Below are positions 704-14,414 of a stretch of 19,383 bases of DNA, piece after piece; position 1 is the stretch's first letter, and each line of letters starts with the position of its first letter. Both the position numbers and the translations under genes were made by a program. The DNA is from Promethearchaeota archaeon. GTDB lineage: Archaea > Asgardarchaeota > Lokiarchaeia > Sigyniarchaeales > SOKP01. Below the pieces are notes generated by a model. That model had not been told where the DNA came from. It searched no databases and was given only the letters and a program-made list of their open reading frames with translations. Location of the stretch: the NCBI GenBank assembly GCA_016930515.1, contig JAFGGO010000130.1, positions 1-19,383 on the forward strand. The letters are read 5' to 3'.

Positions 704-3370
704 ATGACATCAACAGATAAGAAATATATCTATACGTTCAAAGAAGGAAATAAAGACATGAAACAGATCTTGGGAGGAAAAGGCGCCAATCTAGCAGAAA
801 TGACCTCTTTTGGATTGAATATTCCACAAGGTTTTACCATTTCTTGTCAAGCTTGTTTAGATTATTTCAACGATCCAGAAGGATTCATGGCGATGATCCG
901 CCCTGGTGTAATGGAACATTTAAAGGGATTGGAACAAGAAACAGGGAAAAAATTCGGAGCCGATAAAAATGCTTTACTAGTTAGCGTTCGAAGTGGCGCG
1001 CCCATGTCAATGCCAGGGATGATGGACACGGTGTTAAATTTAGGATTAAACGACATCGCCGTTGCAGGATTGGCAGAGGAAACTGGAAATCCCCGATTTG
1101 CATATGACGCTTATCGAAGATTTATTCAAATGTTCGGAGACGTTGTAATGGGAATCGAACTAGATCACTTTGAGGAGATACTTAACGCGCATAAAAAAGC
1201 CAAAGGACCAAACGCTCAAGACACAGATTTAGACCTTGAAGACTTGAAAAAGATCATAGAAGACTATAAAGCTTTATACAAGAAACACATTGGTAAAGAT
1301 TTCCCTCAAAATCCTATTGAGCAATTGTTTTTAGCGATAAAAGCAGTATTTAAATCATGGAACAATAAGCGGGCAATCGCTTATAGAAAGATAAATAAAA
1401 TTCCAAATTTTGGAACCGCTGTTAATGTACAGGCCATGGTTTTTGGTAATAAAGGATGGGATTCGGGAACAGGCGTAGCTTTTACGAGAGATCCATCAAC
1501 TGGAGAAAAAATCAAATTTGGAGAATATCTTCCTAACGCCCAAGGGGAAGACGTGGTAGCAGGAATTCGTACTCCAAAAAAACTGGAAGAAATGAAAGAT
1601 GAATTTCCCGGAATTTACGAAGAGCTCTTAGAAACCATGGATAGATTAGAGAATCACTATAAAGACATGCAAGACATCGAATTTACCATCGAAAACGGCA
1701 AATTATTCCTATTACAAACTCGAAACGGAAAGAGAACGCCACAAGCAGCTATTAAAATCGCTGTTGATAAAGTTAAGGAAGGTCTTGTTACGAAAGAACA
1801 AGCCCTAATGGAAATTGATCCTAATATCGTGTCTAATTTGTTATTCAAGCACATCGATGAAAAGAAAGCAGACATGTCCAAAATGTTAGCTCAAGGAATA
1901 AATGCATCCCCTGGCGCGGTTACTGGGAAAGTAGTATTCGAGGCTGATGATGCCGTTGAATTAACAGAAAAGGAAAGGATGGACGTGATATTAGTGCGCC
2001 CACAGACAAAGCCAGACGATGTTCACGGATTATTTGCCGCAAAGGGCGTTCTAACACAGTTCGGTGGAAAGACATCCCACGCTGCTGTCGTTGCGAGAGG
2101 GATGGGCAAACCTGCCGTAGTAGGTGCTCAAATGGTGAACATCAATCTCGAGAAAAAGCAAATGGAAGTAGACGGGACTGTCATTAACGAGGGAGACATT
2201 ATCACCATCGACGGTGCTACGGGGAAGGTATTTAACGGTCAAATGCCATTAGTGGATCCCGAATTAAAAGGGGAATTCATCGAATTACTCCAGATGGCTG
2301 ATGAAATCAGGGCAATTGGTGTAAGAGCTAACGCTGACACTCCAGAAGACGCAACCAAGGCAATAGAATTTGGAGCTCAAGGCATCGGATTATGCAGGAC
2401 AGAACATATGTTTATGGCACAAGAAAGATTACCCGTAGTCCAACAAATGATCATGGCAGATTCGGACGAAGAGAGACAAAAAGCCCTAGACAAGATCTTG
2501 CCCATGCAAAAAAGTGATTTTTACGAGATTTTTAAAATAATGAAAGACAAACCCGTTACCATCCGTTTGCTCGATCCACCCTTACACGAATTTTTACCAG
2601 AACTCGAAACGGTACTGTTAGAACACCAAGAACTCAAGCTCACGGGCGGTTCATCAGAAGAAATTGCCAAGAAAGAAAGCGTCATAGCAAAGATAAGATC
2701 TTTATCCGAAGAAAATCCAATGATGGGACTTAGAGGCTGCCGATTAGGAATAACTTGGCCACAAATTAATGTGATGCAGGTTAAGGCTATCTTTCAAGCA
2801 GCTTGCGAGTTGAAAAAGGAAGGCATTAATGCAATCGTAGAAGTCATGATTCCACTGATCGGAAGCATTAATGAATTAACCCATGTCAAGAAAGATTTAG
2901 TCAAGGTTGCGGCAGAAACGATCAAAAGTTACGGAGTGGACTTGGATTACAAATTTGGTACAATGATCGAGATTCCCAGAGCAGCTTTAACTGCGGGATT
3001 GATTGCAAGCGAAGCCGAGTTCTTTTCTTTTGGCACCAACGACTTAACTCAGATGACATTCGGATTCTCGCGGGACGATGCTGAAGGCAAATTTATTCCG
3101 ATCTATCTCGAGCAGGGCATTATGAAAGATAATCCCTTCGAAGTTTTAGATCAAGAGGGTGTTGGTAAGCTCATGAAGATGGCAATAAACGATGGACGCC
3201 AAACTCGCCCAGATCTGAAGTGCGGAATATGCGGCGAACACGGAGGAGAACCTAGCTCGGTCATCTTCGGGCACGATATTGGCCTAAATTATGTTTCTTG
3301 TTCTCCTTTTAGAATTCCCATAGCAAGAATTGCGGCAGCTCAAGCAAATATTTTAAATAAGAAGAATTAA
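704..3370 (+). CDS. ppdK: Pyruvate, phosphate dikinase
   Basis: 888 aa; LGGKGANLAEM, LLVSVRSGA..SMPGMMDTVLNLGLN, phospho-His motif GGKTSHAAVVARGMG, GIGLCRTEHMF, FFSFGTNDLTQ, CGEHGG, YVSCSPFRIP. Confidence 0.98.
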   Translation: MTSTDKKYIYTFKEGNKDMKQILGGKGANLAEMTSFGLNIPQGFTISCQACLDYFNDPEGFMAMIRPGVMEHLKGLEQETGKKFGADKNALLVSVRSGAPMSMPGMMDTVLNLGLNDIAVAGLAEETGNPRFAYDAYRRFIQMFGDVVMGIELDHFEEILNAHKKAKGPNAQDTDLDLEDLKKIIEDYKALYKKHIGKDFPQNPIEQLFLAIKAVFKSWNNKRAIAYRKINKIPNFGTAVNVQAMVFGNKGWDSGTGVAFTRDPSTGEKIKFGEYLPNAQGEDVVAGIRTPKKLEEMKDEFPGIYEELLETMDRLENHYKDMQDIEFTIENGKLFLLQTRNGKRTPQAAIKIAVDKVKEGLVTKEQALMEIDPNIVSNLLFKHIDEKKADMSKMLAQGINASPGAVTGKVVFEADDAVELTEKERMDVILVRPQTKPDDVHGLFAAKGVLTQFGGKTSHAAVVARGMGKPAVVGAQMVNINLEKKQMEVDGTVINEGDIITIDGATGKVFNGQMPLVDPELKGEFIELLQMADEIRAIGVRANADTPEDATKAIEFGAQGIGLCRTEHMFMAQERLPVVQQMIMADSDEERQKALDKILPMQKSDFYEIFKIMKDKPVTIRLLDPPLHEFLPELETVLLEHQELKLTGGSSEEIAKKESVIAKIRSLSEENPMMGLRGCRLGITWPQINVMQVKAIFQAACELKKEGINAIVEVMIPLIGSINELTHVKKDLVKVAAETIKSYGVDLDYKFGTMIEIPRAALTAGLIASEAEFFSFGTNDLTQMTFGFSRDDAEGKFIPIYLEQGIMKDNPFEVLDQEGVGKLMKMAINDGRQTRPDLKCGICGEHGGEPSSVIFGHDIGLNYVSCSPFRIPIARIAAAQANILNKKN

Positions 3371-3374
3371 TCTT

Positions 3375-3400
3375 CACTCTTTTTTTCTTTTAAATTTTTA
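3375..3400 (+). terminator. Oligo-T terminator-like tract after ppdK
   Basis: ctctttttttctttaaattttt-like T tract immediately after the stop, in the gap between convergent genes; archaeal intrinsic terminators are T tracts. Confidence 0.45.
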
Positions 3401-3410
3401 AATCGGACTT

Positions 3411-4205
3411 TTATGGTTTTTTAGCTTGAATATACAAACGAGTATGTTTCATAGTTAGATTATTCTCGCCATTTGATTCAAGAAAAAAAACAATAGAATC
3501 GTTGATAAATTCATCGTGAAGATTTTGAGGAAGAACATTTAAATAAGGGACTAGGGCTGCAGCTCTAATATAATTACATAGATCCTCTTTATTGTCGAAT
3601 TCTATTATCATTTGTATTGGTTCGATTTGAATGGCGCAAAATCCACATTTCTCTAATATCTCTTCTGTTTCAAAAGACGTAAGAAATCTCCAGGGAAAAT
3701 CCATTGATTGAAAATAAGTATGATATTTTTTATCGTTTTCTAAAGTTTGTATCGTTTTGAATAAGGCATTGATCTCTTTTAAACCAGTTTGGACCATTAA
3801 TCGCCCTCCAGTTTTCAGAGCGTTGTAGAGTAAAGTGTACATTCTTTCTAAATTAATTATCCAATGTAAGGCAGAGTTTGAGAATACAGCATGAAATTGA
3901 TTTCTAAAATTGATGTCTAGAGCGTTATCGTGTATTATATTAACATTCAGGATATTATTCTTTTGAAGATTTTTTTTTGCTTGTTCAATCATGTGCTCCG
4001 ATAGTTCAATCCCCGTTATATTTCCGTGAGGAATTAATTTAGCAATTTCGATTGTCGTCATTGCGTTTCCACATCCTATATCTAGAATCTTTTCTCCGTC
4101 CTTGGGTTTGAGCATTTCTATTGCTTTCAAGCCTAAATTAAATTGAAATTGAGAACTTTTATCGTATAATTTAGCGTCCCATTTATGAGAGTTTTTGTAT
4201 TTCAT
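3411..4205 (-). CDS. Class I SAM-dependent methyltransferase (trans-aconitate methyltransferase-like)
   Basis: W-D-A-x-x-Y N-terminus, motif I ILDIGCGNA, GIELSEHMIEQA, FHAVFSNSALHWI, LKTGG. Confidence 0.88.
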   Translation of the reverse strand: MKYKNSHKWDAKLYDKSSQFQFNLGLKAIEMLKPKDGEKILDIGCGNAMTTIEIAKLIPHGNITGIELSEHMIEQAKKNLQKNNILNVNIIHDNALDINFRNQFHAVFSNSALHWIINLERMYTLLYNALKTGGRLMVQTGLKEINALFKTIQTLENDKKYHTYFQSMDFPWRFLTSFETEEILEKCGFCAIQIEPIQMIIEFDNKEDLCNYIRAAALVPYLNVLPQNLHDEFINDSIVFFLESNGENNLTMKHTRLYIQAKKP

Positions 4206-4210
4206 TTAAT

Positions 4211-4738
4211 CTACCCTTCTTGCTCTAGCACATCGTAAAATATCTTATAATCTTCATCAGAAAACAAACAAAAAACAACAATTTCAATTCCCGTGTTTTC
4301 TTTCAAGTAATTTATCACGGTATTAATCATTATTTGAGCACATCTATTGATTGGATATCCAAAAATACCAGTTGATATAGCTGGAAAAGCAATTGATTTT
4401 AAAGAATGTTGATCGGCTATAATGAGACTATTTTTCGTTGCCATTTTAAGCTTATAGTCTTCGTTTCCTTCGCCCATTCGAGGCCCTACAGCGTGAATAA
4501 CATGTCTTGTTTTTAATTTTCCTGCTGAAGTAATGGCCGCTTCGCCAACCTTTATTGGTGAAACATTATTGCATTGTTCTTGTATTGAGGGGCCTCCTTT
4601 CGTTCTAATCGCACCTGCGACACCCCCTCCTAATATAAGATTTGAATTAGCAGCGTTAACAATTGCGTCAGTGTTTTGATTCGTGATATCGTCCTTTACG
4701 ATTCTTATCGTGGAATTATTAATCCTATATTCTTTCAT
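4211..4738 (-). CDS. Macrodomain protein (MacroD/YmdB type; O-acetyl-ADP-ribose deacetylase / mono-ADP-ribosylhydrolase)
   Basis: DDIT..DAIVNAAN..L.GGGVAGAI, VIHAVGP, SIAFPAISTGIFGYP. Start placed at ATG 4738 (MKEYRINN, 175 aa), not 4834, because the domain begins there. A 5-nt gap to the methyltransferase suggests an operon. Confidence 0.92.
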   Translation of the reverse strand: MKEYRINNSTIRIVKDDITNQNTDAIVNAANSNLILGGGVAGAIRTKGGPSIQEQCNNVSPIKVGEAAITSAGKLKTRHVIHAVGPRMGEGNEDYKLKMATKNSLIIADQHSLKSIAFPAISTGIFGYPINRCAQIMINTVINYLKENTGIEIVVFCLFSDEDYKIFYDVLEQEG

Positions 4739-4992
4739 AACAAGATCTATTTGTTTAACTTGCTTTAAGTTTATTGCGTTATTATGAAATTTGAAATGGA
4801 TCATGTAAAACGATGAAAAATTCAAAATAACCAAATTTTTAAATTTTAGAAGTTATATTGAATCAATTAAGTTTGAAAAATGTTTTTCTAAAAATAATTG
4901 TAAAATCGAGTTTATTTACAATAGATTAAATTATTTCATAAATTACCTTAACATATAGTGCACCCACTAAAAGACCAAAGAACTGAAGAAAA

Positions 4993-5919
4993 TTGATTTC
5001 GAGAGTATTAGTTATAGCGCAAGGTGGTTTATTGGCATATTCCAAGAATTTTATCAACATAGCGGAAAGTCGGGATAGTGGTGCTACAGAAGGAGATTTA
5101 ATTAGCGGTTTTATCTCCGCCATAAGTACATTTGCCAAGGAAATAAAAGGTGGAAACATCCATTCACTTAATTTTAAAAACTTTAATATTGTCATGGAAT
5201 ACGACACGGAAACTGATACTATATTCTTTATAATTTGCGATATAAACGATATTGAGGAGGAAGTACGAGAACGCTCGATACTGTTGAAGGAGGAATTCAT
5301 AAAAAGACATAAAGAAAGACTCATGAATTGGACAGGGGAGCTTGTTCTTTTTCAAGACATGGAAGCGTTCGTGGAAGAAAATATCTTTATTCCTCCAAAA
5401 ATACTTATTGTTGGAGAAGTAGGTGTTGGAAAAACTACTATAATGGATTTATTCCCCGGAGAAACTATTATAGAGATTGACGAGGATTTAAACGAAATTA
5501 TTCAAAAGACAATTTATGTACAAGGTCTTAACCTCAGGCAATTCATTATTAGGGAGATGAACATTGAAGAGTTAGTTGACAATTCCAAGCTTTACAAGCC
5601 TCTTTTAAACAACGCCGATATTATTATCATCGTTACTAATTCTGGAGCAAGTAATTTAGCAAGAACTGCAAAATTATATCCTATCTTGAAAAAACTAGTT
5701 AAAAAAGCGGATTTTTATGTGATTGCCAATTTTCAAGACAATAAGGAACTGGCGTTTGAGCCAATCAAGATTGAAGAATTATTCGATGGGCTCAAGACAT
5801 ATGGATTTGCTGGAACGGAAAAAAAAGCTCAAGAAAAGATGTTCAATATAATGGTTGATGTGTTAAATAAATCCATTGTTGAAAAAATACAACACGATAA
5901 TCAAGAGATAACATCGTGA
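4993..5919 (+). CDS. Longin-like domain fused to a degenerate small GTPase (Ras-superfamily fold)
   Basis: TTG start. N-terminal ~125 aa fits a longin pattern (RVLVIAQGGLLAYSKNF...DLISGFISAISTFAKEI.GGNIHSL...IFFIICD). C-terminal half has the P-loop ILIVGEVGVGKTT, ADIIIIV strand and a G4-like ANFQD, but no DxxG G3 motif. Confidence 0.75.
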   Translation: MISRVLVIAQGGLLAYSKNFINIAESRDSGATEGDLISGFISAISTFAKEIKGGNIHSLNFKNFNIVMEYDTETDTIFFIICDINDIEEEVRERSILLKEEFIKRHKERLMNWTGELVLFQDMEAFVEENIFIPPKILIVGEVGVGKTTIMDLFPGETIIEIDEDLNEIIQKTIYVQGLNLRQFIIREMNIEELVDNSKLYKPLLNNADIIIIVTNSGASNLARTAKLYPILKKLVKKADFYVIANFQDNKELAFEPIKIEELFDGLKTYGFAGTEKKAQEKMFNIMVDVLNKSIVEKIQHDNQEITS

Positions 5920-5958
5920 GAAAAATAAAGCTAAACGAATCATTAAAAATGAAAAAAA

Positions 5959-6447
5959 ATGAAAATTGAAGAAGATTTTGTATTTCCCGTATATATATCA
6001 GATAAAATATTACAAGAGATAAAAAAAATATGTTCGAGCTACAAGGTCGAAGTATTTGGATATCTAATTGGAGAGATTTTTTCTTGGAAGAATAAAAAAT
6101 ATTTGCTTATTGAGCACCAATTTTATTCAAAAAAAACCTTCAAAAGCAATGCTTCTTTAGTAGCTCAAATTGAAGGAGCCTCAGGCGAGTTTAATCAGGC
6201 ATTAGAAAAATTAAAAAAAAAATCAAATAAAGACTCCTTAAGAAAGGTAGGGTGGTGGCACAGCCATCCAAACTTTGGCGTGTTTTTAAGCCCAACGGAT
6301 GTAAAAACTCATCGATATTTCTTTCCAGAACCTATTTTCGTGGCTTTAGTTGTAGATCCTATTCGAGACGAACACGAGTTTTTTAGCATTGACGACAAAT
6401 CAAAGAAAGGATATAAAGTCATAAGCAGCGCAATTTTAAATGAATAA
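5959..6447 (+). CDS. JAMM/MPN+ (JAB1/Mov34, Rpn11-like) zinc metallo-isopeptidase
   Basis: E31 in EVFGYLIG and an intact H101-S-H103-x7-S111-x2-D114 motif (GWWHSHPNFGVFLSPTD), followed by ALVVDP. Confidence 0.93.
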   Translation: MKIEEDFVFPVYISDKILQEIKKICSSYKVEVFGYLIGEIFSWKNKKYLLIEHQFYSKKTFKSNASLVAQIEGASGEFNQALEKLKKKSNKDSLRKVGWWHSHPNFGVFLSPTDVKTHRYFFPEPIFVALVVDPIRDEHEFFSIDDKSKKGYKVISSAILNE

Positions 6448-6475
6448 TTTCTCCTAAAAATTCTTTTTAATAAAC

Positions 6476-7345
6476 ATGACAGCTAATAACGATTATAAAA
6501 TCATAGGTCAAGAATCCATCGACGACGATATTTACGATCGACAAAAACGAATTAAAGGATGGGATCAAAAAAGGATTTCTAACGCTACAATCATGGTAAT
6601 TGGCGCAGGAGCGACAGGAAATGAAGTTGTAAAAAATTTAGTGTTATTTGGTATAGGAAAAATAATTCTTGTAGATTACGATACAATTAATGTATCGAAC
6701 TTGAATCGATGCGTTTTATTTAACATTAAGAGCGCTCAAAAAAACGAGTACAAGGCCGATGTAGTTAAAGAAGCTTGCAAAGACTTGAATCCTGATGTTG
6801 AGATTGCATCCTTAAAAGAAAATCTAAGCGATATAGACAAAAATCTCTATAAATGTGATGTTGTATGTTCCTGCGTTGATAACGTGGAAGCCCGGATTGA
6901 AGCCAATAATTACGCTTATTATTACGGAACACCATTTGTTGATAGTGGAATCGATGAATTTTTTGGGAGTGTTCAAGCAGTATATTCAAGAGTTCCAGAC
7001 GCAGCATGCTTGCAATGTGGAATCTCGGGAAAGGATTTGGATATAATGTGGAAAAGATTTTCCTGTACTGGTCAAGAAATTGAATCGGAAAACGGAGAAA
7101 CTGTGGGAAAAATAGCTACAATTATCACCACTACCTCAATAATTGGTGGAATACAAGCTCAACAAGTCCTCCAATTCGTTTTAGGTGTCGATTACTATAA
7201 AAAGCATGGACACTGGAATCTTGATATCGGTGAACCGCTCGTCGGAAAGCAACTTAACTATAACGGTCATACGAACAAGTTTGACATTATAGAAAAGGTG
7301 AAAAATCCCAGTTGTTGGACATGTTCTTATGAAAAAAAAGATTAA
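6476..7345 (+). CDS. Ubiquitin-activating enzyme E1-like (ThiF/MoeB/UBA family)
   Basis: YDRQ, GAGATGNEVVKNL, VDYDTINVSNLNR, YKAD, CVDNVEAR; Zn pairs C178-L-Q-C181 and CWTC; candidate catalytic C197 (RFSCTG) between them. Confidence 0.93.
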   Translation: MTANNDYKIIGQESIDDDIYDRQKRIKGWDQKRISNATIMVIGAGATGNEVVKNLVLFGIGKIILVDYDTINVSNLNRCVLFNIKSAQKNEYKADVVKEACKDLNPDVEIASLKENLSDIDKNLYKCDVVCSCVDNVEARIEANNYAYYYGTPFVDSGIDEFFGSVQAVYSRVPDAACLQCGISGKDLDIMWKRFSCTGQEIESENGETVGKIATIITTTSIIGGIQAQQVLQFVLGVDYYKKHGHWNLDIGEPLVGKQLNYNGHTNKFDIIEKVKNPSCWTCSYEKKD

Positions 7346-7421
7346 ATTACGAATCACAAAAAAATAAAACACATAAAAATCATAATAAATAATAAAAACA
7401 ATAATTGTAGAGGCTAATGTA

Positions 7422-7967
7422 ATGCCAGAACTACCGCACGAAATATGGAAAGAACGAATTGAAAACGAAATAAAGGGATTGAATCGCCTCGAGGTGCTCG
7501 AACCAGGTTCCATCCTCAAAAACGAAGACACGGTCGAAATGGTTCTTAACATTCACGCGTTTGGATTTATCAAAAAGAAGAAAAAATTAGTCCCCCAAAC
7601 TAATCATCGTATATTCATCAAAATAAATCGGGCTTTCCCATATCCAGGAGGTATTGATTTTGCATGGTATTCTAACATCTACCATCCAAACATTCATCCT
7701 GTGGATTTGAGCAATAAACAGCAGGGAACGGGATATATTTGCTTGAATGTGCTAAAAAAATGGTCAAGACTCTCGGATTTAGAAACGACTGTAAAAGCTT
7801 TGAAAATGCTTGTTGAAAACCCAAACCCAGATGATCCCTTAAATTACGACATTTGCTTGGATGCTACTGAATTTTTCAAAAACAATTCAATGGAAGATTT
7901 GATAAAGCAATATAGTTTACCAGAAGAGGACGAAGACGAAGACGAAATTAAAATAATAGATGATTAA
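7422..7967 (+). CDS. Ubiquitin-conjugating enzyme E2 (UBC fold) with an acidic tail
   Basis: ERIENEI first helix, FPYP, IYHPNI (H88-P-N90), GYIC107LNVLKKWS, L..L..NPNPDDPLN; C-terminal EEDEDEDE. Confidence 0.93.
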   Translation: MPELPHEIWKERIENEIKGLNRLEVLEPGSILKNEDTVEMVLNIHAFGFIKKKKKLVPQTNHRIFIKINRAFPYPGGIDFAWYSNIYHPNIHPVDLSNKQQGTGYICLNVLKKWSRLSDLETTVKALKMLVENPNPDDPLNYDICLDATEFFKNNSMEDLIKQYSLPEEDEDEDEIKIIDD

Positions 7968-7982
7968 AAGAGTAGAATAACC

Positions 7983-8156
7983 TTGAAAGATAAGAACAAG
8001 ATAGAACAAGAGGAAGTCCCAAATTCATCAGAAGATTCAGACCAAAATGACGATAGACCAAGGATTATTGGAAGTATTGACCCTATCATTCCAGAAAAAA
8101 GACCCCCTAACGATAAGATCAAGGATCATTTTATTACCGAAGAAGATAAAGCTTAA
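7983..8156 (+). CDS. Small acidic, probably disordered protein (57 aa), not in the ORF track
   Basis: Hand translation from TTG 7983: MKDKNKIEQEEVPNSSEDSDQNDDRPRIIGSIDPIIPEKRPPNDKIKDHFITEEDKA*. Coding-like purine-rich composition; sits between the E2 stop and the T tracts, in the same frame as E2. Confidence 0.55.
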   Translation: MKDKNKIEQEEVPNSSEDSDQNDDRPRIIGSIDPIIPEKRPPNDKIKDHFITEEDKA

Positions 8157-8162
8157 TCTGGA

Positions 8163-8250
8163 TTATTTTTTTAATTCTTCGTTTTTTTATGCATTTCGAT
8201 TTTCTTATTATGTTTTTTTTAATTAATTAATGAAAAATAGAAAAAAGAAA
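8163..8250. terminator. Bidirectional T-tract terminator region between convergent units
   Basis: Several T6-T8 runs on + after 8156, then A-rich runs (T on minus) at 8233-8250 downstream of the Ubl gene. Confidence 0.5.
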
Positions 8251-8260
8251 TTTAAGGCCA

Positions 8261-8518
8261 CTAATATCCTCCCACGACTCGAGCCCATAACGCTAATTTA
8301 TCGTTTTCTTTCAAACCAAACTTATGTATTGCATCTTGAATGGTGGAATCTGGAGGGAGTTCCTTGTTGTTCAAAACTAAAGTAAAGCTACGCTGTTCAG
8401 CACTAATTATTCCCATGTGCTTGATAATGATGTCAACTATTCGTTCGATTTTGTGGTGTTCTTTTACATCGAGCTTGATTAATTTTCCAGTCCGGGAATC
8501 TTCTACTTGTATGCGCAT
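8261..8518 (-). CDS. Ubiquitin-like protein precursor (beta-grasp; ends ...RVVGG-Y)
   Basis: 85 aa; aligns by eye with ubiquitin (MRIQV..TGKLIKLDV ~ MQIFV..TGKTITLEV; LVLNNKEL ~ LIFAGKQL; TIQD ~ TLSD; LWARVVGG ~ LVLRLRGG). Minus strand reads gga gga tat tag. Confidence 0.88.
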   Translation of the reverse strand: MRIQVEDSRTGKLIKLDVKEHHKIERIVDIIIKHMGIISAEQRSFTLVLNNKELPPDSTIQDAIHKFGLKENDKLALWARVVGGY

Positions 8519-8640
8519 TGTGTTTTACTGTTTTTTTTAATTTTGGTTATACTTTATTAAAAATACTCAAAAATTGCTTAAGAACTTTTTGATGGGATCG
8601 AAACTTCATTTAGATGAATAAAAACAAATCATGGTGAATA

Positions 8641-9354
8641 TTAATGCTCGTGTTCATGCTCATTATCTTGGTTTTTTTTCATTATTTCGTCCAGTTTAGC
8701 TCGATCTTCCTCCGACATGTTGCTCATTACTTCCATTTGTTGTTTCATTAAATCCATCATAAATGTTTTGGAAAGTACTTGATATAAAACTGGTAAAGAA
8801 ATTCTCATACGTGCTAATTCAAGAAACATTGTTTTGGCAATATCTCTCATCTCCTTGAGGTCCTCTTTCGTCATCCCTTCTTCACCAATTCCCGGACATT
8901 CTTCATCGACAATAGTGAAAGAATTTCCATCAAATTCAAGGGGATAAGTCCGACAGCTTAAGGGACGATTTTCGTATATTAAACATTTTTTTTGTTCCTC
9001 GTTATACATAGAACACTTTGCACCAAGTAAGTCCTCAATTGGAACCTGTCTAAAAGGACTAGGTGTATTCGAAGCTTCATCATCATTTCCAGACTTAGGT
9101 GGGACTATAGGTTTCAGTATTAGATCGATACCTCCACTTGGTATTTCCTGAATGTCCAAATATGGGAGAAAGTTTGCAACCACTTTATTATGTGCCCATA
9201 ATTGCAAATCCCATGCTGTTATTGGGATTGGTCCACGAGAAAGGCAACATTTATCACATCTGGTACATTTAAAGGTGAATTTGGTTTTTGAAGATTCAGA
9301 TTCCTTTTTTTTCTCGTTATTTTCGATTTGTTCATCCTTCTTGGTTTCAGACAT
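8641..9354 (-). CDS. YkgJ-family CxxCxxCC cysteine-cluster (Fe-S/Zn) protein
   Basis: FKCTRCDKCC, C-x-x-Y...CLIYENRPLSCRTYP, ECPGIG; Met-rich helical tail ending HEHEH. Confidence 0.85.
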   Translation of the reverse strand: MSETKKDEQIENNEKKKESESSKTKFTFKCTRCDKCCLSRGPIPITAWDLQLWAHNKVVANFLPYLDIQEIPSGGIDLILKPIVPPKSGNDDEASNTPSPFRQVPIEDLLGAKCSMYNEEQKKCLIYENRPLSCRTYPLEFDGNSFTIVDEECPGIGEEGMTKEDLKEMRDIAKTMFLELARMRISLPVLYQVLSKTFMMDLMKQQMEVMSNMSEEDRAKLDEIMKKNQDNEHEHEH

Positions 9355-9488
9355 TAAAAATCACTTGAATGATATTTATAATTAATATTGAAATAGGAAT
9401 CATTGAAAAAAAGATTTACTTTATAACTCGAACCTTTAAAGGTAATTAAAAATTAGTAATAAAATAATTAGCTATTTCAAGAATTAAC

Positions 9489-12022: not shown

Positions 12023-12921
12023 TAATGTTCGAGTACAATATTGAACAAAAAGTCGCTTCAGTGGGAAATGTAAAAATTGGAGGACAACCAGGAGAGAATC
12101 CCATTGTCATGGTGGGAACCATTTTTTATACAAAACATGCCGCTTTACTCGACGAAAAAAAAGGAGAGTTCGATAAAAAAATGCTTGAAAGTGAACTTAA
12201 CGAATTCGTATCGATAGTTGAAGACACTGGCATGCAAGCAATCGTTGATGTGGTGGGTTCGTATCCAGACACGCTCCTCAAGGAATGCCTTTACATCGCA
12301 GATTTGGTGGATTGCCCTTTCTTGGTTGATGGTTTAAACGATTCAAGCAGGATCCCTACCATGGAGGGCCTTCAGGAAGTAGGATTACTCGATCGAGCCA
12401 TCCTCAATAGTATTGACGAGAATACAGGAGATGAAAGTTTAAAACGATTGAAACGAGCGGGCGTGAAGAACGCAGTATTATTGACATTTTCGAACAGGGC
12501 GTATAATCCAATAAACAAGATCAAATTGTTAAAAGAAGTCCTCTTAGTAAAAGCAGAAAAAGCCGGCATTATAAATGTAATTGTAGATACAGCGGTCTTG
12601 GATCTCGTATCCATTGGTGTGAATCTAGAATCAACGCGATTAATAAAAAAAGAATTAGGGTTGCCAACTGGTTTTGCACCTGCGAACGCTATATATGGAT
12701 GGGATTATGTGAAAAAATATGGCGAAAGTGCAAGATGTGGTGCAATTGCTTCTGTAATGGCTTACTCTTCTGCAAGCGATTATATTCTATTTGGACCTGT
12801 TAAATTTGCAAAATGTGTCGTTCCTTCTATGGCTTTAATAAGCGGTATAAATTCGTATTATAGGAAGAGAATCTTGAGAAAAACCATATCAGAACAAGGC
12901 CCGTTGAAAAAAATATTTTAA
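12019..12921 (+). CDS. mtrH: MtrH-family pterin-binding methyltransferase (tetrahydromethanopterin S-methyltransferase subunit H-like)
   Basis: EQKV..VGNVKIGGQPGENP.VMVGTIFY, PFLVD, RAILNSI, IVDTAVLD, IKKELGLPTG..P.N, DYILFGP. ATGA overlap with the upstream gene. Confidence 0.88.
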   Translation: MIMFEYNIEQKVASVGNVKIGGQPGENPIVMVGTIFYTKHAALLDEKKGEFDKKMLESELNEFVSIVEDTGMQAIVDVVGSYPDTLLKECLYIADLVDCPFLVDGLNDSSRIPTMEGLQEVGLLDRAILNSIDENTGDESLKRLKRAGVKNAVLLTFSNRAYNPINKIKLLKEVLLVKAEKAGIINVIVDTAVLDLVSIGVNLESTRLIKKELGLPTGFAPANAIYGWDYVKKYGESARCGAIASVMAYSSASDYILFGPVKFAKCVVPSMALISGINSYYRKRILRKTISEQGPLKKIF

Positions 12922-14414
12922 GCCATATATCTTGAGATTAGTCCACTGTTCCTGCTCAAGAATTCCGGTAGATTCTGGTTAATGTGATTTTTTTTTTGTT
13001 CTTCGTCAATTAAGAATAGAAGAAATATATCTTGACCATCTAATTTGGCTCGTTTAAACAAGATGACAGAGTCTGCAATTTTAAAAATCGTTTCTTTTTC
13101 TCTTAATGCTTTAAATTTCTCGAAAATCTTGAATAAGGTGGTAAATTGAGGGGCAGTAATTTCGAAAATTTCCTTCATATTAGTTCCTATTGTTCCAGAA
13201 TTAGAAAGATGCTTAGAAGAAGATAAAGTTTTGGAAGCGTGATCTGCTAATAATAAACCATCTTGACTTAATAATAATATTAAAGAGATTCCATTTTCTT
13301 TTGAAAAAGTTTGGAGGTTAAATTGAATGAGATCTCTGTTAGGACTTAACTGTGCAATTCCTGATGAAAACGCCCTTAAAACGCTGAAAAGAGAAAATAT
13401 ACTCGTAGTATGTATTTCTGGAGGAGTTCCTTGATTGAGATTTGTTAGTTGATTTGTGATGTTTTTAATGTTTTGTTGTATTTTAGAAGTTTCAATGATA
13501 TCAGGGTCTGCTTTGGTAAGAATGTGAATGATGGGAGTGTTCTGTTCTAATCGCTTTAAATCCTCTTTAACTCTCGTGAGATATTGAATGCTTTCCTTAA
13601 ACCGATCAGCTCTTTGTAGGTCAATAAAAAAAAATATGAGATCGGCTTCATAAAGATAAATTTCGGATCTCGAAAGATACTTCTCTCGAAATTGGAGCTG
13701 TCCCCCTAAATCCCATAATGAAATAGTAGCACCGGCAGCTCTAATCGTGGAAATACTTTCTCCTCTCGTAGGTTTCACTCCTAAAAGTTTTGAAAACCTA
13801 CGATCAATAGTAAAAAAGAAACTGGTTTTACCGGCAGAATCCAATCCGAAAAAAATTATTTTAAGTTTTCGATCAGCAGTAATCGGATTGGATGGCTTAT
13901 TTTCTACTTCTATGAGTTGAATGACTAGGTTTTCAAACACATGATGAACTGAATCATAAGGAACGAATCCTTCTGAAAATTCTTTATCCAAGTGTTTAAA
14001 GGATTCTAAAATGAGCTTTCTTATTTGATCGTTGTTATTGTACAAAAAACTCCGTTTTTTCTCGTCAACGAGTATGGAAAACGCAGTGGGTATCGGTTTA
14101 TCCGTGTTTTTTAACCAAATAAAGTGAAAATAAGTAAGAGCAGTAATTTTATAATCGGGGTAGGGTAGAATTGCAAAATAATTGGCATTCTTGAGGTTTT
14201 CGTCGTCTAAATTCATCTTATCGCTTATTAATAAGCTTAAGTTTTTAATGGAAATTTGCGTGTAATCCCTAAGCGTCAAGCTAAACTCGTTTGAATTCTC
14301 CTTTTCTGTTTCTGAAACGGGATCGGGATACGAATATTTTGGCATTGGACCAAATTTATCGAGAGCTGAAAATAAAAAACCCATGATCACTGAAGATTTC
14401 GGAATTCTACGCAT
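12918..14414 (-). CDS. Tri-domain protein: putative longin/uDENN domain + Rag/Arf-like small GTPase + roadblock-like domain
   Basis: G1 GLDSAGKTS, G2 PTRG, G3 WDLGGQ, G4 TKAD, G5 TSIF. The following segment resembles the Rag C-terminal roadblock (AFS.GIAQLSP..DLIQ..L..FSKENGI.LILLLSQDGLLLAD). N-terminus FSALDKFGPMPKYSYP resembles uDENN/longin starts. Confidence 0.8.
   Translation of the reverse strand: MRRIPKSSVIMGFLFSALDKFGPMPKYSYPDPVSETEKENSNEFSLTLRDYTQISIKNLSLLISDKMNLDDENLKNANYFAILPYPDYKITALTYFHFIWLKNTDKPIPTAFSILVDEKKRSFLYNNNDQIRKLILESFKHLDKEFSEGFVPYDSVHHVFENLVIQLIEVENKPSNPITADRKLKIIFFGLDSAGKTSFFFTIDRRFSKLLGVKPTRGESISTIRAAGATISLWDLGGQLQFREKYLSRSEIYLYEADLIFFFIDLQRADRFKESIQYLTRVKEDLKRLEQNTPIIHILTKADPDIIETSKIQQNIKNITNQLTNLNQGTPPEIHTTSIFSLFSVLRAFSSGIAQLSPNRDLIQFNLQTFSKENGISLILLLSQDGLLLADHASKTLSSSKHLSNSGTIGTNMKEIFEITAPQFTTLFKIFEKFKALREKETIFKIADSVILFKRAKLDGQDIFLLFLIDEEQKKNHINQNLPEFLSRNSGLISRYMA

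Follow-up and report, generated by a model that had tools for sequence, protein, structure and literature searches.

A Putative Second Ubiquitin-like Conjugation System of a Lokiarchaeial Order, Encoded Together with a Longin-GTPase

Described Systems and the Locus

The operon of Caldiarchaeum subterraneum, which encodes ubiquitin (Ub), an E1-like protein, an E2-like protein, a small RING finger protein (srfp) and an Rpn11-like JAMM protease (Hennell James et al. 2017, PMC5654768), is among the closest described systems to the locus considered here. Its E1-like protein has a C-terminal ubiquitin-like domain (Fig. 1, PMC5654768), and maturation of its Ub precursor by the JAMM protease has been shown (PMC5654768). 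The locus considered here occupies positions 4993–8518 of a 19,383-nucleotide stretch of DNA (JAFGGO010000130.1), which was analysed whole and is called the window below; this DNA corresponds to contig C187 of a Promethearchaeota (Lokiarchaeia-type) genome bin with a size of 4.0 Mb and a completeness of 94%. Genes for a longin-GTPase, a JAMM protease, an activating enzyme (E1) and a conjugating enzyme (E2) follow one another on the forward strand and converge on a gene for a ubiquitin-like protein (Ubl). On balance, the locus probably represents a functional second Ubl conjugation system that is specific to one lineage, a single Lokiarchaeial order, and is a paralogue of the canonical Asgard system in the same genome.

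The window operon has in common with the Caldiarchaeum and Asgard operons the same four enzyme and modifier families, and in both the modifier precursor continues past Gly-Gly with a tail. As in Caldiarchaeum, an Rpn11-like JAMM is encoded beside the other enzymes. Unlike in those operons, the E1 is minimal and lacks the C-terminal ubiquitin-like domain, the E2 contains an insertion of 8–9 residues before its catalytic Cys, no small soluble RING protein is encoded in the operon and a longin-GTPase gene stands at its head. Candidate ligases of related loci also differ; they are polytopic proteins of the membrane that carry a C4C4 finger.

Asgard gene clusters combining ubiquitin and ESCRT components have been described in a paper that makes no mention of a GTPase partner (Hatano et al. 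2022, PMC9192718). The window resembles these clusters in that Asgard ubiquitin-type E1, E2 and Ub genes are grouped, and differs from them in the absence of ESCRT genes. None was found in the 19-kb window, as had been noticed at the locus earlier; the genome encodes its homologues of Snf7 and EAP30 on other contigs, C85 and C76.

Fusions of longin or roadblock domains with Rag- and Arf-like GTPases are reported to be common in Asgard archaea (Liu et al. 2020, 10.1101/2020.10.19.343400; Tran et al. 2024, PMC10933270), and in MK-D1 a GTPase gene generally does not share an operon with its regulator (Tran et al. 2024, PMC10933270). The first gene product of the window has the same N-terminal longin domain joined to a small-GTPase domain. 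It differs from the known fusions by its degenerate G3/switch II region and by the association of its orthologous group with a Ubl operon. Asgard longin-GTPase fusions, archaeal ubiquitin operons and Ub-ESCRT clusters are thus known already. Among the papers searched, none was found to describe a longin-GTPase gene at the head of a Ubl operon, or genes for membrane finger proteins on its flanks.

Bacterial Bil and CBASS Cap2/Cap3 systems encode a Ubl (or a conjugated C-terminus), E1, E2 and JAB together and have no classical E3 ligase. The window likewise encodes Ubl, E1, E2 and JAB without a classical E3. Unlike in the bacterial systems, its E2 and Ubl have no PADLOC match, its context is archaeal and housekeeping, and its affinities are of the eukaryote type.

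Ubiquitin signalling and small-GTPase/longin trafficking are two eukaryotic hallmarks which both occur in Asgard archaea. The window shows genetic linkage of a complete Ubl cascade with a longin-Arf-like GTPase, and in relatives the linkage extends to membrane proteins with a RING-like finger. A possible early link of protein tagging with membrane-traffic switches, as suggested by these sequences, could become testable in this system.

Conservation of the Operon

Loci found through their E2 gene are unbiased regarding the GTPase gene. In the second sample of this kind (n = 20, family f1), JAMM-E1-E2 with a convergent Ubl gene was present in 20/20 loci, and of the 19 loci that allowed an assessment, 17 had a GTPase-family gene immediately upstream in the same orientation. 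When the first sample and the window are added, the latter count is 24/26. Approximately 30 loci found through the GTPase gene itself have one to three tandem longin-GTPase genes before the same four genes. Since the same order and orientation are seen again in more than 50 loci of related genomes, the gene arrangement is far beyond chance. The genes for PPDK, a methyltransferase, a macro domain, a CxxCxxCC protein and an M42 peptidase are common flanks within the genus only; the five genes can therefore be regarded as a unit. Co-conservation, on which the earlier note had made its reading depend, is borne out by this gene-neighbourhood comparison.

In loci of the window type (type A, see below) Ubl is the most conserved protein of the set, with 73–100% identity. 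Orthologue identity is 67–83% for E1, 56–86% for E2 and 42–62% for the GTPase and JAMM. The window carries a reduced copy of the operon, with one GTPase gene only, a Ubl precursor ending in GG-Y and no adjacent finger gene.

Three domain architectures are found for the GTPase partner: the longin-GTPase type of the window (type A), a GTPase with a TPR/MIT-like helical domain after it (type B), and a longin-GTPase fused to a carbon-nitrogen hydrolase domain (type C). Several genomes contain a type-B gene and a convergent Ubl paralogue (55–61% identical, ending exactly at GG) with no enzymes nearby. In 4/5 genomes with such an enzyme-free pair, a single E2 is encoded elsewhere, beside its own type-A Ubl. 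A single E2 is encoded where a genome has two or three Ubl paralogues, and each paralogue's gene adjoins a GTPase-family gene of its own, so that one enzyme set appears to serve all the paralogues.

The linkage of GTPase and Ubl genes is the tightest of all. Recognition of the Ubl by the GTPase-fold protein, or a matching of the two, finds its best support in this pairing of each Ubl paralogue with its own GTPase-family gene. The pairing is compatible with adaptor and substrate alike and does not tell which. Type-B partners are seen at L117:7986–9212(+), with 9232–9486(−), and at L122:7992–9008(+), where the Ubl paralogue ends at GG, with or without an adjoining JAMM-E1-E2 set.

A Separate Pathway in the Same Genome

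Two other sets of related genes are present in the genome of the window. Contig C26 carries the canonical JAB, E2, E1 and Ub genes in a row, together with two more Ub-domain genes. A third E1 is encoded on contig C71 beside a 1655-aa MIT/TPR protein, with an E2 gene nearby. The E1 proteins of C26 and C71 are 415 and 530 aa long, versus 289 aa in the window. Identity of the window proteins to the C26 and C71 sets is 27–34% for E1, 24–29% for E2 and 32% for JAMM (24–32% to the canonical C26 set), and no similarity was detectable between the window Ubl and the other Ubls of the same genome. Since the canonical set coexists in the same genome, the window set is, judged by its sequences, a paralogue and not an orthologue of the canonical Asgard ubiquitin system.

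The phyletic ranges of the two sets differ as well. E2 of the canonical C26 type was found in 209 of the 400 phylum genomes sampled; these comprise 128/134 of the family to which the window belongs, as well as members of many other families. E2 of the window type was found in 73/400 and is confined to a single order (69/134 in family f1, 3/4 in family f4 and 0/~260 elsewhere). A separate Ubl pathway, which the earlier note had put forward, is supported by these data. The opposite outcome considered there, that the proteins are orthologues of the described Asgard system, is contradicted by the separate location of the canonical set, by the low identities and by the differing ranges. An Asgard genome, like those of eukaryotes, can thus contain several Ubl pathways that are not redundant. 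Because the system seems specific to its lineage, parallel elaboration is more likely than an ancestor of the eukaryotic machinery.

On contig C71 (genome G000, locus L015) the MIT+TPR gene (2406–7373, +) is directly followed by the E1 gene (7522–9114, +), and the E2 gene lies 2.4 kb further; the MIT domain may be a sign that this third E1/E2 set is connected with ESCRT-III. Contig C57 of the same genome (locus L019) contains one more small Ubl gene (194–445, +), the product of which has 83 aa, ends in AGG and matches Pfam ubiquitin with 30 bits. It converges on a gene for a 406-aa membrane protein (706–1926, −), whose transmembrane part resembles the finger proteins discussed below and whose C-terminus gives a weak longin match (Intu_longin_1, 0.0087) where the finger would be expected. 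In the sister family f4, E2 homologues with 48–58% identity (L040:8119–8619(+) and neighbours) adjoin gelsolin-like genes (Pfam Gelsolin, 0.0017), with no E1, JAMM or Ubl nearby.

Enzymes and Modifier

The four forward-strand genes are separated by gaps of 39, 28 and 76 nt, and the open reading frames (ORFs) of the window reproduce the arrangement first read from the letters alone, including the di-glycine Ubl on the opposite strand. The Pfam searches proposed with that reading returned JAB, ThiF and UQ_con for the three enzymes and only a match below the cut-off for Ubl (values below). Motif conservation was scored over 37–42 orthologues per protein, residues present in at least 95% being called conserved; the catalytic motifs named beforehand for JAMM, E1 (C197) and E2 all reach this level.

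The second gene (5959–6447, +) encodes an Rpn11-like JAMM/MPN+ metalloprotease (Pfam JAB, 1.5e-10). By sequence, its best PDB match is the Rpn11-like protein of Caldiarchaeum (6fjv, 1e-9), followed by Rpn11 and CSN5. Residues E31, H101-x-H103, S111 and D114 are conserved. JAMM is predicted to trim the Ubl tail and to remove Ubl from its conjugates.

The minimal E1 (6476–7345, +; 289 aa) is matched by Pfam ThiF (5.9e-50) across residues 26–281. This coverage leaves no room for an extra domain, so the C-terminal ubiquitin-fold domain is absent and the protein consists of the adenylation domain only, with Cys197 in the crossover loop and a four-Cys zinc site (C178/C181/C280/C283). All five Cys residues are conserved in at least 95% of 38 orthologues, and C197 is the candidate catalytic residue. 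The active adenylation domain of UBA1 is the best PDB match by sequence (4.5e-27), and UBA5 is weaker (7e-16).

Among 1.84 billion cluster representatives, the 50% cluster of this E1 is isolated, and the next relatives are 43% and 40% identical. The closest relative outside the group (43–44% identity; L134:6929–11154) belongs to a metagenomic organism with a GC content of 50%. Genes for a divergent Ubl, an E2 and a JAMM–zinc ribbon fusion are its neighbours, but none for a GTPase was detected there. A metagenome scan with the second-nearest E1 relative (P0243) gave no match.

E2 (7422–7967, +) has the UBC fold (Pfam UQ_con, 9.5e-11) and is closest by sequence to UBE2N-type enzymes. Residues H88-P-N90 and C107 are invariant in 41 orthologues. 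The HPN motif is typical of lysine-directed E2s. Alignment to UBE2N and other E2s places the insertion of 8–9 residues between HPN and the catalytic Cys, and the protein ends in an acidic tail. It is a matter of speculation that the insertion and the tail take part in E1–E2 recruitment.

The Ubl gene (8261–8518, −) encodes a precursor of 85 aa, which ends in VVGG-Y and is conserved among orthologues. The Pfam match to Rad60-SLD (1.6e-4) is below the cut-off, and matches to ubiquitin and NEDD8 are weak as well; a beta-grasp fold is weakly suggested by these matches. GG is invariant in 42 Ubl orthologues, 14 of which end at GG, and 28 continue with a tail of 1–14 residues. Such tails are consistent with maturation by JAMM as in Caldiarchaeum (PMC5654768).

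The Longin-GTPase

The first gene (4993–5919, +) encodes a longin domain (approximately residues 1–130) fused to an Arf-like small-GTPase domain (approximately residues 133–300). Its TTG start at 4993 agrees with the conserved N-terminus of orthologues. Pfam recognises only the P-loop in the window protein alone; among family members it reports Arf in 27/54 and, weakly, Fuz_longin_1 in 7/54. An AlphaFold2 (AF2) model built from a 54-sequence alignment has a pLDDT of 80.8 (43.8 in a single-sequence run). In this model, residues 130–302 match Arf1 with Z 18.1 and a root-mean-square deviation (rmsd) of 2.2 over 152 residues, and Foldseek matches of the domain are Arf, Arl, Rab and MglA. Residues 1–132 match longin folds with Z 13.8–14.2, namely CPLANE Fuzzy/Inturned (7q3d_C, Z 14.2), VAMP7 (2vx8_A, Z 13.9, rmsd 2.0 over 110 residues) and TRAPP (3cue_C, Z 13.9). 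The assignment of the gene as a longin-GTPase, made earlier from the letters, agrees with these folds.

The P-loop (G1), a G4-like NFQD and a G5-like SA are kept in the family alignment, and G141, G146, K147, N246, Q248 and D249 are invariant. The G3 motif DxxG and the catalytic Gln are absent; conserved R187/E188 occupy the place where DxxG is expected. As the model and motifs suggest, the protein probably binds guanine nucleotide without a normal switch II.

Carbon-nitrogen hydrolases are a Cys-dependent amidase/acyltransferase fold. A fusion of this kind (nitrilase superfamily, PF00795, 5.3e-10) heads the operon at L086:8001–10643(+) and is also found at L037, L084, L085, L097, L100 and L113. 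The hydrolase domain of these type-C proteins could matter catalytically for Ubl chemistry. One longin-GTPase orthologue (G018:C66:2802–3695, locus L035) contains two in-frame TAA stops in an otherwise intact operon, and may be a pseudogene or a sequencing error.

RING-like Finger Proteins

Recurrent neighbours were sought by clustering all ORFs of 64 related loci. One of them is a polytopic membrane protein of 300–400 aa ending in an invariant finger, CxxC-x9-11-CxxC-x4-CxxC-x10-CWxC, the eight-Cys pattern of which is invariant in 25 aligned fingers. Its gene occurs in one to three tandem copies, just past Ubl or before the GTPase gene, in 34/59 GTPase-ascertained and 14/20 E2-ascertained loci. 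Small transmembrane proteins are also present in the operon context of relatives.

The best PDB match of the finger profile is the RING of RNF4 (1e-5 for a tandem construct, 0.04 per domain), followed by TFIIH p44, RBBP6, TRIM37 and Mdm2. In a language-model comparison (ESM Atlas), the finger falls with archaeal zf-RING_2 clusters (0.86), which serves as a lead only. Among 135 genomes of the family, which are related and non-independent, finger matches with E ≤1e-12 occur in 68/70 E2-positive versus 13/65 E2-negative genomes.

The window genome has the highest finger count, with 24 scattered matches. These were found in its ORFs by a hidden Markov model search and are proteins of 69–1360 aa, with the finger mostly at the C-terminus; a finger protein of 86 aa is encoded at G000 C111:28820–29080. 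Their first ligand pair is mostly CxxH, a variant of the finger, and for this reason a strict eight-Cys regular expression found only three ORFs. Judged from these sequences, the finger proteins are candidate RING-like ligases and would act in trans in the window genome.

The earlier note had described the locus as having no recognisable E3. This holds within the 19-kb window, where no RING, RING-like or finger gene was found (PF13639 matches are located on other contigs of the genome). It does not hold for the architecture in general: the operon of relatives is usually flanked by finger membrane proteins, the finger tracks E2 across genomes, and 24 finger proteins are encoded elsewhere in the window genome. 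The CxxCxxCC (YkgJ-like) gene at 8641–9354 was considered as an E3 substitute and rejected, being a neighbour of Ubl within the genus only.

Proposed Cycle

The components and motifs appear to cover every stage, from maturation and activation to conjugation and deconjugation, in agreement with the first reading of the locus, and the module very probably works as a Ubl conjugation system. Its cycle can be modelled on the characterised Caldiarchaeum cascade (PMC5654768), every biochemical step being inferred from knowledge of the families. JAMM would remove the C-terminal Tyr of the Ubl precursor, exposing Gly-Gly. The minimal E1 would adenylate Ubl and form a thioester on Cys197, from which Ubl could be handed to Cys107 of E2 and conjugated to lysines of targets. 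The mark could also be reversed by JAMM.

The likeliest role of the longin-GTPase, assigned tentatively, is that of an adaptor or regulator. As a Ubl-specific, nucleotide-binding scaffold with a degenerate switch II, it could link tagging to membrane-associated partners by binding either Ubl or the charged E2. For relatives, such partners would be the polytopic membrane proteins whose genes adjoin the operon and which carry a RING-like finger; in the window genome, the 24 scattered finger proteins would take this role in trans.

A more specific proposal is possible, though doubtful. The longin-GTPase would be a specificity factor, a GTPase-fold "E3-like" adaptor which recognises its own Ubl and delivers the charged E2 to membrane RING-like receptor proteins. 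Each Ubl paralogue would have a private partner of this kind, and E1, E2 and JAMM would be shared. If true, small-GTPase/longin trafficking modules were hard-wired to Ubl tagging before eukaryotes, and an archaeon would display a layout of one E1, one E2 and many ligases. The five proteins are small and soluble and form a compact set that could be expressed and assayed, so that direction of archaeal Ubl tagging by GTPase-fold adaptors and membrane ligases is testable.

Several points weigh against the main account of the system. The E1 has no ubiquitin-fold domain, and recruitment of E2 must therefore differ from that by canonical E1s. The system is absent from about half of the family and hence dispensable. 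The longin-GTPase lacks DxxG and the catalytic Gln and may not switch at all. The finger is below every Pfam RING threshold, Pfam giving weak C1_2 and B-box matches only, its best PDB match is weak per domain, and its co-occurrence with E2 was counted in related genomes. The window and its genus have no adjacent finger gene; the membrane-protein homologue within the genus (L032, L116) is devoid of the finger, and the window does not have even that homologue. Support for each component comes from sequence, fold and gene neighbourhood.

Alternative Explanations

The longin-GTPase could instead be a dedicated substrate tagged by Ubl; the system would then require no E3 and have nothing to do with the scattered finger proteins. 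An operon-encoded target is tagged in some bacterial E1/E2/JAB systems. The tight linkage of GTPase and Ubl genes speaks for this role, Ubl paralogues adjoining their own GTPase-family gene even where no enzymes are near; the tandem duplication of GTPase genes (one to three copies) and the lack of an adjacent finger gene in the window point the same way. However, the finger proteins track E2 across genomes, and the diversity of partners (longin-GTPase, GTPase-TPR and longin-GTPase-CN_hydrolase) suits adaptors or effectors better than one conserved acceptor. We regard a substrate role as unlikely.

ATG8-like attachment of Ubl to a membrane lipid, or to some other acceptor that is not a protein, with the longin-GTPase and the membrane proteins marking the membrane site, is considerably less probable. 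The consistent membrane context in relatives (polytopic finger proteins and small transmembrane proteins) could be read in this way, as could the small E1 without a ubiquitin-fold domain and the unusual active-site insertion of E2. Nevertheless, E2 retains the HPN motif of lysine-directed enzymes, and no sequence similarity to ATG7, ATG3 or ATG8 closer than the superfamily level was found.

Antiviral defence of the Bil or CBASS-Cap2/Cap3 kind, which had been suggested at first, finds no support and is highly improbable. The four-part composition is identical, with no E3, the distribution is patchy within one family, and PADLOC reports generic JAB and E1-domain matches. It finds nothing for E2, Ubl or the GTPase, however, and the NCBIfam cap2_3 model gives 25–33 bits against a cut-off of 320. 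The operon is flanked by housekeeping genes (PPDK, M42 peptidase and MtrH) and not by defence genes, and the best sequence relatives are of the eukaryote type (UBA1, UBE2N, Rpn11). Identity of E2 falls with taxonomic distance, from 74–86% within the genus to 53–72% within the family, as expected for vertical descent.

It is hardly credible that the locus is the Asgard ubiquitin system known from earlier work, with its RING E3 gene at another place: the component families are the same and RING-family genes do occur elsewhere in the genome, but C26 carries a separate canonical cluster, which is near-universal in the family and occurs widely across the phylum; the proteins of that cluster are only 24–32% identical and the Ubls share no detectable similarity.

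Two further assignments were rejected. The UFM1 system (UBA5-UFC1-UFM1) uses a UFC1-type E2 without HPN; the window E2 has an invariant HPN, its Ubl has no Ufm1 Pfam match (E up to 0.1), and UBA5 is a weaker match of the E1 than UBA1. SAMP/UbaA and MoaD/ThiS sulfur-carrier systems rely on E1-only chemistry and have no E2. A SAMP/UbaA, MoeB or ThiF reading disagrees with the encoded and co-conserved E2 and with the NCBIfam UbaA score of 85.7 bits against a cut-off of 450; E1 scores with the NCBIfam ThiF and MoeB models are also far below their cut-offs.

Other Features of the Window

The AT-rich intergenic region 4835–4992 (+), read from the sequence, precedes the operon and is presumed to hold its promoter, shared with the divergent macro-domain gene. 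The latter (4211–4834, −) encodes a putative ADP-ribose-binding or hydrolase protein (Pfam Macro, 1.2e-38). It was considered as a functional partner of the operon and rejected, being a neighbour within the genus only.

A spacer rich in oligo-T tracts (8157–8260) separates the convergent E2 and Ubl genes and is probably a bidirectional archaeal terminator. Immediately before it, a reading frame (7968–8156, +) stays open for 62 codons past the E2 stop. Its translation has no Pfam match and is 57% identical over 56 aa in the same-genus locus L031 and 55% over 20 aa in L032, far below the identity of E2 itself (86% in L031, 74% in L032); these values do not decide between a coding sequence and a drifting spacer.

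Further along, a gene at 12918–14414 (−) encodes a 498-aa protein with a Gtr1/RagA-type GTPase region at residues 185–399 (7.7e-21), preceded by approximately 180 N-terminal residues without assignment; its position is unrelated to the Ubl operon.

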